Source: a virus
Lineage: Duplodnaviria; Heunggongvirae; Uroviricota; Caudoviricetes
Virus record (IMG/VR): IMGVR_UViG_2627853730_000001
Location: 1 to 9,891 of that record
DNA length: 9,891 nt
Reading direction: 5' to 3' (one strand)
In this document: in pieces, positions 2 to 9,196 of the stretch
Position numbering within the stretch: position 1 is the first letter of the stretch
Layout of the letters: each line of letters opens with the position of its first letter
Made by a program: the position numbers and the translations under genes
The notes under the pieces: generated by a model
The model's input: only the letters and a program-made list of their open reading frames with translations
The model's database searches: none
Told to the model about the DNA's origin: nothing

Positions 2-235
2 CTGGAGATCACGCTCGGTCAGTTAACGGTTGAGTTCGAAACTGATGGGTGGTTTGCTCTGACGGGTGCCGGTTGCGAAGCGCGGCTGGATGATAATGCC
101 GTCTGGACCGGCTGGCGATTGCCGATGAAAGCAGGCCAGCGTTTAACGCTTAAACGCCCGCAGCACGGGATGCGCAGTTATCTGGTGGTCGCGGGTGGTA
201 TTGATGTTCCGCCGGTAATGGGGTCATGCATGTAA
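2..235 (+). pseudogene. pxpC: Interrupted host gene fragment, PxpC/YbgK-like (5-oxoprolinase subunit C / allophanate hydrolase subunit 2 family). It has no start in the window and its frame ends at a stop inside the prophage end.
   Basis: The + strand frame beginning at nt 2 is open to TAA 233-235 and translates LEITLGQLTVEFETDGWFALTGAGCEARLDDNAVWTGWRLPMKAGQRLTLKRPQHGMRSYLVVAGGIDVPPVMGSCM*. The ...SYLxVAGGIDV... region matches my recollection of the enterobacterial PxpC/YbgK mid-protein region, so the expected downstream part is missing. The following sequence is AT-rich with phage-end repeats. Identification is from memory, not a search. Confidence 0.5.
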
Positions 236-236
236 C

Positions 237-406
237 CAGGTGAATCATTTGATACCGACAAGGGTTTTAGTGAAAGGAGGTGAAATCACCTGTAAGATGC
301 TGAAATAAAACAGGTGATGTATACTTCGGACGGAAAACTCTTTTTGATACCGACTGCTCAACAAATAGTCAAAAGATCAAAAAACGGCGACACATTTGAT
401 ACTGCT
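237..406 (+). repeat. attL-like sub-terminal repeat array, presumed transposase end-binding sites (L1-L3 analogues).
   Basis: Three direct copies of the core TTTGATAC(C/T)G: CATTTGATACCGAC at 246-259, TTTTTGATACCGACTGCT at 343-360, CATTTGATACTGCT at 393-406. Three CAGGTGA motifs: 237-243, 311-317 and, inverted, inside the AGGTGA-AA-TCACCT inverted repeat at 278-291. The first copy resembles the MuA site consensus TGNTTCAYTNNAARYRCGAAAR only loosely. Confidence 0.6.
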
Positions 407-586: not shown

Positions 587-1198
587 TTAACCAACAACAT
601 TTTTCTTTACTGTCACTGCCCCTGATTCCTGGGTGGCGTTATTGCTCGAGTTGTACTTCTCAATAACGCGCAAAATCTCTTTGTCTGTTTCTTCACTTCC
701 CGCCATTCCTATCTTTATTGCATTTTTTAGTACGGGACGTAATGGCAAGGCATCAATGATGCTTTCTACCGCATCCTGGCTGATTGTAGATGTATTCATT
801 GCTGCCAGCCTGACAAGGTTGTTAGTACCTTCTCGCCTGATGAATGTAAGGATTAATTGCTTCTCTTGGGGGCTTAGAGAGCTAAGCGCCTGATCAATAC
901 CCGAACCTGAATCGCAATTTTTTCCGATTTTTCCGCATTCATCTTCGTTCTTGCCTGTGGCCAACCAGTCGAGTGAACAATTACAGGCTTTAGCTATTAA
1001 GGCCAGTTTATCCAAAGGAGGGAAGTTTTTCCCCTTCCTGTAATTTCTTACTGTGGCTTCAGATAGTCCACAAAGGGTCGCCAGTTCGACGTTTGTCATG
1101 TTTCCCATAGCCATAGCTAAGCGTTCTGAAAATCGGTTTATTCCTTCCATATCAATAAACCGTTCCGCACTGGATACGGTTTTTTCTGCCTTATCCAT
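587..1198 (-). CDS. Prophage lysogeny repressor (functional analogue of Mu c) with an XRE/lambda-cI-type helix-turn-helix; 203 aa.
   Basis: Leftward ORF divergent from ner across the operator, in the position of Mu c. Residues ~34-80 (MTNVELATLCGLSEATVRNYRKGKNFPPLDKLALIAKACNCSLDWLATG) fit the HTH_XRE pattern. GGGGG Shine-Dalgarno lies upstream of ATG (complement of 1196-1198). I see no obvious S24 peptidase motif in the C-terminal part. Confidence 0.75.
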   Translation of the reverse strand: MDKAEKTVSSAERFIDMEGINRFSERLAMAMGNMTNVELATLCGLSEATVRNYRKGKNFPPLDKLALIAKACNCSLDWLATGKNEDECGKIGKNCDSGSGIDQALSSLSPQEKQLILTFIRREGTNNLVRLAAMNTSTISQDAVESIIDALPLRPVLKNAIKIGMAGSEETDKEILRVIEKYNSSNNATQESGAVTVKKNVVG

Positions 1199-1354: not shown

Positions 1355-1621
1355 ATGAGGGTATCCAGACAAGCATCGAATAATTTGTTTGTTCGAGAGG
1401 GGTGTGACTGGTCTGCTAAAGCGGTATATGCAGCCCTTGAAAACAAAGGCACAGACCTCCCTGAACTGGAAAGGGAGTTAGGATTAAAAAGCGGATCAAT
1501 GCGCAATGTGTTTTACCGCCAGTGCCGTAAATACGAAGCCGCCATCGCCGAAAAAATAGGGGTTGAACCTGCTGTAATCTGGCCCAGCAGATACCAGGTG
1601 GACGCCAGAGAAGTGGCTTGA
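1355..1621 (+). CDS. ner: Ner-like DNA-binding protein (Mu Ner / Nlp-Sfs7 family), negative regulator of early transcription; 88 aa.
   Basis: Translation contains DWSAKAVYAAL and the C-terminal AVIWPSRYQ, matching the Mu Ner / E. coli Nlp signature (DWHxADIIAGL ... EVIWPSRYQ). First rightward gene after the operator, with a good Shine-Dalgarno. Confidence 0.85.
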   Translation: MRVSRQASNNLFVREGCDWSAKAVYAALENKGTDLPELERELGLKSGSMRNVFYRQCRKYEAAIAEKIGVEPAVIWPSRYQVDAREVA

Positions 1622-1631
1622 TGGGGGATGT

Positions 1632-3722
1632 ATGTGGGTAACAGCAAAAGAATGTGTTGGTCTTCCTGATTTACCAATGATGGAACATAACATTCGCCAT
1701 CGACTCACAAAAGCAGCTGCGGGAAATGCAGCCATGTTACGCAAACGTAAGGGGACAAAAGCAATCGAATTTAATATCGATTGTTTGCCTTCTGGCGCGC
1801 AACAAGTATTGCGTGAACGTTATGCCCTTCAACTGATGACGCAAAAAGCTGATGAATCACCGGCTCCGGTGGTGACAAAGGCCAGACGCTCATCTGCCGT
1901 GGTTGATGCGGTGGAGGCATATCGCGGATCACCACAACTGATGCTCGAACGCCTCAATGCCCTGACTGAAAACCAGCGCCAGGTGGCTGATGCACGAATC
2001 GCGATCGTCAGCGAAGTTCTGAAAGTCGCGCAACAACCTGGTTTCAGCTGTGCGAAGGCTATCCGGTTTATCGTTGACAACCTGGCACGTTCGCAACTGG
2101 ACGAGCGCATTGTGGCAATGGTTGAGACGGCGAACGCCAAAAAGGGAAACAGCCGTGCGTTGAGTGAAATCACGCTGAAACGCTGGATTGCGGCCTTTAA
2201 CAAGGCACAGAACGCCGCTGAACGCCTGCTTTTACTGGCACCGGGTAAACGCCAGGAAATAAAAGCCGAAGATATTAACTGGCTGCCCGAATTTCTGGCG
2301 CAGTATCGCCAGTCAAACGGCCGACCAATGACCGAGGCTTACGAGGATTTTGTTGCTGAATGGCAGCACCGGCACGCTGATGAGCCTTATATGCTCGATA
2401 TCATGCCCTCTTATGACACCATTCGCCGCGCAATGAAGAAACTGCCGGAAGTGGTGAAACAAAAAGGCCGGGTAACTGGCAGTGAATACCGTCAGCTTGA
2501 GGGATTCACGCGCCGCGACTGGTCCAGAATGCCGGTGAATTATGTCTGGATTGGTGACGGTCACGGCATGAAGCTGAAATGCGCGCACCCGGTTCACGGG
2601 CGGCCATTCGCACCGGAAGTGACCTTTGTTATCGACGGTGGCACGCGCTTTGTGGTGGGCTGGAGCCTTGACCTGGCTGAAAATGTTTTCGCCGTAGCCG
2701 GTGCCATACAGCACGGTATTCGCCATCATGGCAAACCGTTTCTGTATTACTCGGATAATGGCTCCGGGGAAACCGCCGACGTCCTGGATAAGGAGATTGT
2801 GGGGATACTGCCACGACTGGGGATTAATCACCCGACAGGGATTGCCGGTAATCCGCAGGGACGGGGCATTATCGAACGGCTTAACCGCACATTACCGATG
2901 CGCATAGCCCGTAAATACCGCACCTATTTCGGGAAAGGAGCAGATCGCGAGACGTTACGTAAAACCAACCGCGATTTACGCTCGGCATTCAGTGCCCTGC
3001 AACAGGGCAAACGGCTGAACGCCCGGCAGCAGTCAGCGATGCGTGATTTACCGTCCTGGTCTGAACTGATTGATGCCATTCGTGACGGTGTTGAGTGGTA
3101 CAACAACCGGCCGCACGATGAATTACCCATGAAGCCGAACGGTAAACATTACAGCCCGGCGGAGTTCAGAAAAAAACGCCTGGCGGAAGAGGACACGGAA
3201 ATTGAATGGCTGTCCGATGTTGAACTGCGGGATATGTTCCGGCCGATGGTGGAGCGCCCTGTAAGACGCTGTGAAATACGCTGGCTGAATAATATTTACT
3301 ACGCGCCCGAGCTGCGTGACGAGCATGGCCGTAAGGTACTTATCAGCTATGACATTCATGATGCCGAACGAATTACCGTGCGCCGCCCGGATGGCAGCGT
3401 GATTTGCGAGGCGGTATGGGACGGCAATAAACGCGAAGCCTTCCCTGTCAGCGCGGAATACTACAAACAGCAGCAGCGCCTTAAAGGCATGCGTAAACGC
3501 GCAGAGGAAAAAATCCGTGATGCCGAGGATGAGGTTGTCAACGTGCTGGAGCACAAGCCGCAGGAGCCCTGGCTGGAAAACATATACCGCCCTGTGGGTA
3601 ATACGGTGACCGTTCAGCAACCGGTCGCTGACGATGAACCTGATGAAGAATACGAGCGTAATTTCCAGCGGGGATTGCAACTGCTCGAAGCGAAATTAAA
3701 AGAAAGTGATCCGCTGGCCTGA
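1632..3722 (+). CDS. A: Mu-type DDE transposase A (MuA-like), 696 aa.
   Basis: N-terminus MWVTAKECVGLPDLP resembles MuA MELWVSPKECANLPGLP (enhancer/operator-binding domain). DDE catalytic triad contexts are present: WIGDGHGMK, YYSDNGSGE, GRGIIERLNRT. Size and position (immediately after ner) fit. GGGGG Shine-Dalgarno lies 4 nt upstream of ATG 1632. Confidence 0.9.
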   Translation: MWVTAKECVGLPDLPMMEHNIRHRLTKAAAGNAAMLRKRKGTKAIEFNIDCLPSGAQQVLRERYALQLMTQKADESPAPVVTKARRSSAVVDAVEAYRGSPQLMLERLNALTENQRQVADARIAIVSEVLKVAQQPGFSCAKAIRFIVDNLARSQLDERIVAMVETANAKKGNSRALSEITLKRWIAAFNKAQNAAERLLLLAPGKRQEIKAEDINWLPEFLAQYRQSNGRPMTEAYEDFVAEWQHRHADEPYMLDIMPSYDTIRRAMKKLPEVVKQKGRVTGSEYRQLEGFTRRDWSRMPVNYVWIGDGHGMKLKCAHPVHGRPFAPEVTFVIDGGTRFVVGWSLDLAENVFAVAGAIQHGIRHHGKPFLYYSDNGSGETADVLDKEIVGILPRLGINHPTGIAGNPQGRGIIERLNRTLPMRIARKYRTYFGKGADRETLRKTNRDLRSAFSALQQGKRLNARQQSAMRDLPSWSELIDAIRDGVEWYNNRPHDELPMKPNGKHYSPAEFRKKRLAEEDTEIEWLSDVELRDMFRPMVERPVRRCEIRWLNNIYYAPELRDEHGRKVLISYDIHDAERITVRRPDGSVICEAVWDGNKREAFPVSAEYYKQQQRLKGMRKRAEEKIRDAEDEVVNVLEHKPQEPWLENIYRPVGNTVTVQQPVADDEPDEEYERNFQRGLQLLEAKLKESDPLA

Positions 3723-3804
3723 AATAAAAAAATAACCCGAGGGGTGACTCAGGTTATTTGAGGTTTCAGTCTCGGAGAATGCTGTCTCAAGCGAGGTGAA
3801 TAAT

Positions 3805-4737
3805 ATGACCGATATTAACGATGTAATCAAGACCATTGATGAACTTATTGATGGCGGCGTACTGACGCAGTATGCCATCGCCAGAGAGGCGGGAATTTCC
3901 GACGGCACATTATCGGCTTTCCGTAAGGGAAAATATAAAGGCGATAACGCTGCTGTGGCTGCTTCCCTGCGCTCCTGGTATGAGAACTGGAATAAACAAA
4001 GCGCACTGCCGGAACCGCCGCAGTTTGTGGAAACTCAGACAGTCCAGGAGCTGCGCGCACTGTTTCAGGCGGTTCGCCTGATGGGCTGTATTAACGTTAT
4101 TGTGGGCGTACCGGGTGTGGGTAAAACGGCCACTGCCCGTAATTACTGCCAGGAGCAACCAAACACCTGGATGATCACCCTGTCACCCGCGCACTCCAGC
4201 GTCACGGAGTGTCTGCTGGAGCTGGCCGATGCGCTGGGGATTGATTACACCCGCGCGAACAAAGGGGCATTATCCCGCGCCATCCGCCGTCGCCTGACGG
4301 GAACGCGTGGACTGGTGATTGTGGATGAGGCGGATCATCTTGGTATTGACGGTCTGGAGCAACTCCGGGCAATTCAGGACGCCACGGGGATCGGGATGGT
4401 GCTTATTGGTAACCCGCGCGGATTGTTTAAAGGTGGACGCCGCGCCTTTGATGATTTATCGCGCCTGTTCAGCCGTCTTGCCCGTACAAAACAACTTCGC
4501 AAGGCCAAAAAGGCGGATGTGCTGGCCATTGCCAGGGCATGGGGTATCAGTGGTGAGGCCGAGCTGGCCGTCATGCAGGCTATCGCTGAAAAGCCGGGAG
4601 CATTACGTGTTCTGACACATACGCTTAACCAGGCGTGGCTCACCGCCAGCGGTGAAGGCGCGGCGCTGACAGAAAAACATATTAATGCGGCCTTTAAAGA
4701 GGTTTATACCAACCCTGAATTACTCTCACAGGTGTGA
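3805..4737 (+). CDS. B: Mu B-like AAA+ ATPase, target-DNA activator of transposition; about 310 aa. Alternative GTG start at 3796.
   Basis: Walker A GVPGVGKT and Walker B LVIVDEADHL are present. N-terminal region ...GISDGTLSAFRKGKYKGDNAAV... parallels MuB ...FINDKYNGDNERV.... Length is close to MuB (312 aa). ATG 3805 is preceded by GAGGTG (3793-3798) at 6-nt spacing. Confidence 0.85.
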   Translation: MTDINDVIKTIDELIDGGVLTQYAIAREAGISDGTLSAFRKGKYKGDNAAVAASLRSWYENWNKQSALPEPPQFVETQTVQELRALFQAVRLMGCINVIVGVPGVGKTATARNYCQEQPNTWMITLSPAHSSVTECLLELADALGIDYTRANKGALSRAIRRRLTGTRGLVIVDEADHLGIDGLEQLRAIQDATGIGMVLIGNPRGLFKGGRRAFDDLSRLFSRLARTKQLRKAKKADVLAIARAWGISGEAELAVMQAIAEKPGALRVLTHTLNQAWLTASGEGAALTEKHINAAFKEVYTNPELLSQV

Positions 4738-4739
4738 TT

Positions 4740-4961
4740 ATGGCGGTATTTAATATTCCTGATATTTACGGACGCTTTTACCTGGTTAATTTCGATAACG
4801 TGAAGGTGATTTCACTGGCCGAAAATAAAGCATGTGGCGATTTACTTTTTGAATTTAATGACCGCACACGAATGGTGATATCTGCCGGACTTGATCGCGA
4901 AGGTGCGACAGAAGTTTACAGCGGAATATGCCGTTCTGTTGGTGCGAAACAAGTCAGCTAA
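4740..4961 (+). CDS. Small early protein, 73 aa, in the position occupied by kil in Mu (positional analogy only).
   Basis: ORF starts 3 nt after the B stop with AGGTG 6 nt upstream of ATG 4740 (the six-frame track gives a GTG at 4734). Size matches my recollection of Mu Kil (~74 aa), but I recognise no sequence similarity. Confidence 0.5.
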   Translation: MAVFNIPDIYGRFYLVNFDNVKVISLAENKACGDLLFEFNDRTRMVISAGLDREGATEVYSGICRSVGAKQVS

Positions 4962-8867: not shown

Positions 8868-9196
8868 TAACGACCTTATTTGTTGAATCAGATGAACCTC
8901 TTGTGTGTGCCGCCGGAATGCCGCTCTGTGGCGGAACGCTGACCGGCGTTTATTTCGGGGATTTGCGCGGTTATCCCTGGCATTCACTGGATGACGCATT
9001 TCCGCCTGATATGGAGGCTGTCGTGCTGATTGTTCAGTATGGTGACCAACAGGAACTGCGCATCGGCCATATGGGGTATGAAGGCTTTTTTATTGATGAA
9101 GAAACCGGAGCCTGCCTTGAAGATGAGGACGGACAGGTGACGCACTGGTGCCATCTTTCGGCCTTGCCGGAATTACAGGGGATACATAATGGATGA
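8864..9196 (+). CDS. DUF551-like phage protein, 110 aa.
   Basis: The C-terminal two thirds (PWHSLDDAFPPDMEAVVLIVQYG...GYEGFFIDEETG...VTHWCHLSALPE) fit the DUF551 pattern as I recall it (W-S-D-LP ... VL ... THW-LP-PE). GGGAG Shine-Dalgarno and ATGA coupling at the start. Confidence 0.55.
   Translation: MITTLFVESDEPLVCAAGMPLCGGTLTGVYFGDLRGYPWHSLDDAFPPDMEAVVLIVQYGDQQELRIGHMGYEGFFIDEETGACLEDEDGQVTHWCHLSALPELQGIHNG

Follow-up and report, generated by a model that had tools for sequence, protein, structure and literature searches.

Sp18 of Escherichia coli O157:H7 Sakai and the related Mu-like phages of Shiga-toxin-producing E. coli are transposable prophages of 38-39 kb, which are found at variable loci, including positions inside Stx phages (PMC2669165, PMC7430833, PMC10132054). 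Our literature searches found no description of the end repeats of Sp18-type prophages; no text in the searchable literature contained the tip sequence TGTAACCAGG, and the listed matches to the repeat TTTGATACCG led to unrelated papers. For phage Mu, site coordinates were read from the phage's own end sequences. The last bases of Mu L1, L2 and L3 are at positions 27, 132 and 172, which places the sites 105 and 40 bp apart.

Judged by its matches to other genomes, the 9,891-bp stretch of DNA analysed here (the window) starts with host DNA and continues into the left end of a transposable Mu-like prophage, whose family is that of Sp18. The repeats described below are an expected feature of this known family and not a new kind of system. 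They differ from those of Mu in the sequence recognized, and they vary among related phages together with the transposase.

The prophage boundary and its target duplication

Bases 1-230 are E. coli chromosome and match 5,425 of 5,426 complete genomes, while the rest of the first 1,700 bases is matched by 34 genomes at 98-99.8% identity. Matches to other copies of the prophage begin at 225-231, mostly at 231, give or take a few chance bases. Because they start there in some 30 different chromosomal contexts, base 231 (TGTAACCAGGTGA...) can be taken as the left tip of a randomly inserting element. The junction comprises two features:

Positions 1-230, no strand: host chromosomal flank; its last four bases, TGCA at 227-230, are the predicted target duplication, as extrapolated from six other copies.
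Positions 231-320, plus strand: conserved terminal block, with the left tip TG at 231-232; it holds L1 and a cluster of AGGTGA/CAGGTGA motifs.

The terminal block remains 95-97% identical in LC727881 and LC727895, records in which the downstream sequence has diverged.

The window stops short of its own right end, which was therefore read from other E. coli copies. Five of these have a first 185 bp identical to the window, four being full-length and one a 19-kb deleted copy in bglJ; the sixth is the diverged variant LC727895. All six are flanked by a 4-bp target duplication (GTAC, AGAG, AAAG, CGTA, ATCA and ACTA), and joining the flanks of one copy, with one of its two 4-bp repeats removed, gives the empty bglJ site. 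A duplication of this length has also been annotated by GenBank depositors. Both tips are thus defined by six copies and one empty site, and the repeats stand at the termini of a mobile element with insertion-defined junctions. A 5-bp duplication with shifted tips was considered and rejected, since the fifth base disagrees in five of the six copies.

Two annotation points concern RefSeq entry NZ_CP103972. Its downstream bglJ fragment starts inside the prophage right end and overlaps R1-R3 (locus 19738-20295), and its transposase (locus 1950-3992) starts 16 codons downstream of the ATG that is backed by 696-aa homologues.

Three direct repeats next to the left tip

When both strands of the 9,891 bp are searched, TTTGATACYG is matched exactly three times, always on the plus strand, against an expectation of 0.06; none of 200 dinucleotide-preserving shuffles contained three matches. 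The motif is confined to bases 248-404. A sequence-only reading of this DNA had proposed three direct repeats in the intervals 246-259, 343-360 and 393-406, and the three exact matches do fall inside them. Its spacings of about 97 and 50 bp need correction, the measured start-to-start distances being 95 bp and then 52 bp. Copies 1 and 2 are identical over 12 nt (TTTGATACCGAC). The surrounding region is non-coding and A+T-rich, and short two-copy repeats are common in it. By analogy with Mu, we designate the repeats as follows:

Positions 236-257, plus strand: L1, the putative terminal transposase-binding site; core TTTGATACCG at 248-257, outer AGGTGA at 238-243.
Positions 331-352, plus strand: L2, a putative site; core TTTGATACCG at 343-352.
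Positions 383-404, plus strand: L3, a putative site; core TTTGATACTG at 395-404, outer CGGCGA at 385-390, as in R1.

The L1 core begins at position 18 from the left tip, and R1 of the relatives keeps this distance from the right tip.

Inverted copies at the right end

The right end of each of the six other E. coli copies closes with three inward-pointing TTTGATAC copies. Read inward, all six have the order TATAGCGCGGCGATTTT-TTTGATACCG-ATTTGCATTTCA (12 nt)-TTTGATACCG-(25 nt)-TTTGATACTA, so that the cores start 18, 40 and 75 bp from the tip, L1 likewise standing at 18 from the left tip. The right tip itself reads ...GCGCTATA, i.e. TA, in all six. The prediction that inverted copies of the motif would be found at the right end is thereby borne out, with three in every copy, five of which share the identical left 185 bp.

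The complete 39.3-kb copy in LC727895 is especially instructive. Of its eight TTTGATAC occurrences, six lie at most 165 bp from a tip, and all of these point inward. Although its sequence departs from that of the window beyond the first 90 bp, this copy keeps TTTGATACCG and TTTGATACTG at the same positions. As read from the sequences, the same motif recurs several times at both ends, inverted between them, both among the E. coli copies and in three phages that are more distantly related.

Genes adjoining the left end

The window encodes four recognizable early functions next to the repeats:

Positions 587-1198, minus strand: CI-type helix-turn-helix repressor (Pfam Phage_CI_repr, HTH_3), transcribed towards the left end.
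Positions 1355-1621, plus strand: Ner-like early regulator (Pfam HTH_35), 37.5% identical to Mu Ner.
Positions 1632-3722, plus strand: MuA-family DDE transposase of 696 aa (Pfam Mu-transpos_C, HTH_Tnp_Mu_1 and weak rve hits).
Positions 3796-4737, plus strand: MuB-like AAA+ target-DNA activator (Pfam Phage-MuB_C, AAA_22), 48% identical to MuB.

A MuA-family DDE transposase and a MuB-type ATPase are therefore encoded next to the repeats, as expected for a Mu-type end. The transposase is colinear with MuA over its full length at 23-26% identity (BLASTP 23%, E 4e-13; hhalign probability 98%), and this colinearity takes in the region that aligns to the MuA end-binding subdomains. These subdomains were not detected in the transposase by Pfam, and a sequence search of solved structures returned retroviral integrase cores and did not find MuA. 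Structure prediction with AlphaFold, based on 19 close homologues, gave a poor model of the transposase (pLDDT 49). Used as a Foldseek query, this model had as its best matches the Mu transpososome (E 0.017) and the MuA I-beta subdomain (target TM 0.69), both below significance and thus weak hints. We infer that the 696-aa transposase is the protein that binds L1-L3.

The intergenic region between the repressor gene and ner (1199-1354) contains two promoter-like sites and several inverted repeats, of which those at 1231-1250/1269-1288 and 1294-1310/1321-1337 are candidate operators or a candidate transposition enhancer.

Comparison with the ends of Mu

Mu and the Sp18-type prophages are alike in having three sub-terminal sites at each end, in having the order c, ner, A, B adjoining the left end, and in the placement of the terminal site, which spans positions 6-27 from the tip in Mu and whose core ends at 27 in the window. 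A long L1-to-L2 spacer is common to both (105 and 40 bp in Mu, 95 and 52 bp in the window, 104-106 and 41-42 bp in the Yersinia relatives), and R1 and R2 are exactly 22 bp apart in each. Both elements begin with TGTA at the left tip, and the right tips resemble one another (TGAAGCGGCGC in Mu, TATAGCGCGGCG in the Sp18 type). The likeness to the L1/L2/L3 arrangement of Mu that the sequence-only reading had proposed holds for the three-site architecture, whereas the match in spacing is approximate.

Conversely, the recognition sequence is different, with an A-TTTGATAC-Y-R core in place of the ...RCGAAA(R) of the 22-bp MuA site. The Sp18-type R3 is a direct copy 35 bp from R2 in the E. coli copies, and is direct in all relatives, whereas R3 of Mu matches its consensus in reverse complement. 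Insertion duplicates 4 bp of target DNA rather than the 5 bp of Mu; the right tip is TA rather than CA, beside a left tip of TG; and the transposase shares with MuA the low identity given above. These ends accordingly do not have the combination of CGAAA(R) consensus, TG...CA termini, 5-bp duplication and inverted R3 by which att sites of the Mu/D108 kind are narrowly recognized.

The motif in related phages

The closest records to the window are Mu-like phage inserts in two Stx phages, LC727881 and LC727895, with a transposase 93.5% identical to that of the window. More distant relatives extend the comparison:

Window and LC727895: transposase 100% and 93.5% identical to the window, respectively; left spacings 95 and 52 bp; right spacings 22 and 35 bp.
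Yersinia phage vB_YpM_5 (MT374853): transposase 79% identical; left spacings 104 and 42 bp; right spacings 22 and 35 bp.
Yersinia phage Tongde (MT591577): transposase 56% identical; left spacings 106 and 41 bp; right spacings 22 and 35 bp.
Klebsiella Kp4866-3: transposase 58% identical; left spacings 70 and 42 bp; right spacings 22 and 34 bp.

The alignment to related prophage ends that the sequence-only reading had called for yields TTTGATAC sites in vB_YpM_5, Tongde and Kp4866-3, three per end; where the tip could be assigned, left and right ends agree in register. TTGATA does not vary in an alignment of 30 sites, whose consensus is A-TTTGATAC-Y-R and whose flanks are nearly free; the upstream (outer) half is weakly conserved, as GGYGA in L1, L3 and R1. 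The right tip reads TA(T/A)AGCGCG in the Yersinia and Klebsiella relatives. The distance from L1 to L3 is 146-147 bp in the window, LC727895, vB_YpM_5 and Tongde, but is not kept in Kp4866-3 or in a Shigella/E. coli variant described below. Within this distance L2 is shifted by about 10 bp, or about one helical turn, the E. coli type having the shorter L1-L2 distance and the Yersinia type the longer (343-352 in the window, compared with 4854 in vB_YpM_5 and 37059 in Tongde).

The Yersinia phages are chimeras with respect to Mu. In vB_YpM_5 and Tongde, most of the proteins MuB, terminase, portal, Mom, Mor and C share 93-100% identity with their Mu counterparts, with B, terminase, portal and Mom at 97-100% and the terminase subunits at 98-100%, yet the ends bear TTTGATAC sites in place of the ...CGAAA(R) sites of Mu, and the transposase body is of the window type. 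The last 28 or so residues of this transposase are identical to the C-terminal tail of MuA. Since the MuA tail is retained behind a replaced transposase body, the recombination junction must lie inside gene A. The phages vB_YpM_5, vB_YpM_6 and vB_YpM_Tongde, classified as Muvirus, are therefore like the window in their TTTGATAC site family and in the 18/40/75 layout of the right end, and unlike it in that the rest of the genome is Mu, the transposase has a MuA-type tail, L2 lies further from L1, and a Mu-like L1-L2 spacer takes the place of the AGGTGA cluster.

The repressor of LC727895 has no detectable similarity to that of the window and its Ner is 39% identical, while the repressors of vB_YpM_5, Tongde and Kp4866-3 are 27-37% identical; the motif is kept in all of them. 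Taken with the chimeras, LC727895 indicates that the motif travels with the transposase body and not with the repressor, Ner, B or the packaging and late genes. This co-variation is the strongest available argument for the transposase binding the repeats, a conclusion that it supports. The repeats do not fit the Mu site consensus, as the sequence-only reading had noted, and the co-variation also supports its proposal of a distinct end specificity.

Further afield in the transposase clade, the core itself is replaced. The Shigella/E. coli variant (S. flexneri CP182556, locus 1737-1890), with a transposase 74% identical to that of the window, has three CAAGATAA repeats at its left end with spacings of 71 and 52 bp. 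A transposase scan using one genome per species returned two loci only, both of this 74%-identical variant with the CAAGATAA repeat. In Pseudomonas phage VW-6B (transposase 47% identical; its record is without a left end), the right tip TGTAGCGCGGCGA is followed by TTCTGGACTG, TTTTGGACTG and TTCTGGACAG at 18, 40 and 73. These repeats are all direct, with the core TTYTGGACWG, and this right tip has TG/CA where the Sp18 type has TA. No clear end repeats were seen in the SuMu record, which includes host flanks. The core sequence thus changes within a fixed architecture across the transposase clade, and conserved architecture with a variable core fits the notion of a distinct end specificity.

Distribution in E. 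coli

The left end is present in 233 and the right end in 390 of 5,426 complete E. coli genomes. That right ends are the more numerous points to truncated copies or to additional variants of the left end, of which the CAAGATAA type is one. Up to four or five places per E. coli genome were seen to be occupied, a few of them on plasmids. The immunity region of the window is one of several variants; over positions 231-430, identity is at least 95% in 43 records and 80-90% in a further 185.

A cluster of AGGTGA motifs between L1 and L2

CAGGTGA is found four times in the window against an expectation of 0.89, at 237-243 (plus), 286-292 (minus) and 311-317 (plus), with an unrelated copy at 9134. 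The sequence-only reading had described three such motifs interleaved with the repeats, one of them inside an inverted repeat with 6-bp arms at 278-291. That inverted repeat is indeed present, as the palindrome AGGTGA-AA-TCACCT. The interleaving stands only in part: there are three copies, but one is on the opposite strand, and one lies upstream of repeat 1 and two between repeats 1 and 2 but none between 2 and 3. The first copy is in fact the outer half of L1, and the others are at 48-88 bp, counted from the tip. In a larger inverted repeat, ATCACCTGT at 285-293 pairs with ACAGGTGAT at 310-318 perfectly over 9 bp. The resulting feature is:

Positions 278-318, no strand: AGGTGA/CAGGTGA cluster, composed of the palindrome at 278-291 and the inverted repeat 285-293/310-318; a candidate pac or accessory site.

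The possibility that the inverted repeat at 285-318 is a terminator for the repressor transcript was rejected, as no T-run follows it and a terminator scan did not call it.

The cluster sits inside the 90-bp block that is kept among immunity variants, and it is absent in relatives with a Mu-like L1-L2 spacer. A spacer like that of Mu (CCGGGAGGA..GGAT..CGGGA), which in Mu we take to be the pac region, is present in vB_YpM_5 (4760-4815), Kp4866-3 (30-75), Tongde (about 37100-37150) and the Shigella/E. coli variant (locus 1785-1820). In these relatives, whose packaging genes are of the Mu type, the transposase sites differ from those of Mu despite the resemblance of the spacer, and the place of this spacer is occupied by the AGGTGA cluster in the Sp18 type.

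It is tempting to speculate that the cluster is a pac or accessory site of Sp18-type phages that lies outside the series of transposase sites, a suggestion that would complement the assignment of L1-L3 and does not compete with it. Its position close to the tip within a block that stays nearly invariant despite downstream divergence, its replacement in relatives by the presumed Mu pac region, and the fact that its AGGTGA copies have no partner TTTGATAC are all in keeping with such a role. Nevertheless, Kp4866-3 has the Mu-like spacer though its small terminase is only 46% identical to that of Mu, and the Sp18-type small terminase is closer to that of Mu (57%) than is the Kp4866-3 protein, so that spacer and terminase do not co-vary cleanly. 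Moreover, AGGTGA is the outer half of L1 and resembles the CGGCGA of L3 and R1, and the extra copies could accordingly be half-sites for the transposase. On balance, we regard the pac or accessory role as a tentative proposal that is rather doubtful.

Alternative explanations for the repeats

Could the TTTGATACYG repeats instead serve as operators, bound by the repressor of the prophage or by its Ner-like protein? The repressor gene ends shortly before them in its direction of transcription, and the ends of Mu have been reported to contain repressor-binding sites besides those for MuA (PMC3820752). The motif, however, is the same in LC727895, where the repressor is unrecognizable and Ner strongly diverged, and in vB_YpM_5, Tongde and Kp4866-3 with their distant repressors; phages with swapped immunity and the same ends have, in other words, already been seen in sequence. 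Inverted copies at the opposite end of the prophage, equally far from its tip, are likewise difficult to reconcile with an operator function, and a promoter-operator region with inverted repeats of its own is available elsewhere, at 1199-1354. We consider this explanation very improbable.

Packaging offers another possibility. Mu-type phages package by the headful from the left end, and the pac of Mu is near L1, which would make a terminase signal at this position understandable. A motif present in triplicate at each end, with the two sets inverted, does not suit such a signal, and vB_YpM_5 and Tongde, whose terminase is all but that of Mu, have TTTGATAC sites that are absent in Mu. A pac function of the repeats therefore deserves as little weight as an operator function. 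Least credible is a chance origin of the repeats in a non-coding, A+T-rich region where short two-copy repeats are common. Three exact matches where 0.06 are expected, a number that none of the shuffles reached, a core that is kept amid diverged sequence and its mirroring at the right end leave it hardly any room, and the comparative data have in effect refuted it already.

Interpretation and implications

Taken together, our findings favor a single reading of the window, to which we assign a probability of roughly 85%: it contains the left junction of an Sp18-type prophage, which begins at base 231, with the repeats as the putative L1-L3 cores for the encoded transposase and R1-R3 opposite them. 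At this end of the Mu-like prophage, the transposase very probably docks on the TTTGATACYG repeats. Subunits of the transposase, encoded 1.2 kb downstream, would bind L1-L3 and the inverted R1-R3; the bound ends would be paired in a transpososome; and the tips would be cut and joined to target DNA, presumably in this order. The ends would hence fulfil the role of attL and attR of Mu with a different recognition sequence.

A more far-reaching proposal is that the Sp18-type ends are served by a Mu-like transpososome with a different tolerance in geometry and chemistry, embodied in an 11-bp TTTGATAC-centred core, an all-direct R1-R3, a 4-bp stagger, a TA 3' end at the right tip and a portable end specificity. 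We hold the chances for and against this combination to be about equal. The portable module is suggested by the Yersinia chimeras, which would run a window-type transposase body and ends with the B protein and virion of Mu by way of a Mu-type C-terminal tail. If true, the Sp18 type would offer an orthogonal system for transposition of the Mu type and, as a natural experiment, show what determines the length of the target duplication.

Sp18-type prophages are present in about 4-7% of complete E. coli genomes, where they insert into genes and Stx phages, and exact tips together with site arrays allow the precise annotation of insertions and of the genes that they disrupt. Furthermore, a single transposase clade combines the three-plus-three architecture with no fewer than three core sequences, and also with a 4-bp duplication and a right tip other than CA. 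This provides a comparative handle on how transposases of the MuA family read their ends and set the target stagger.
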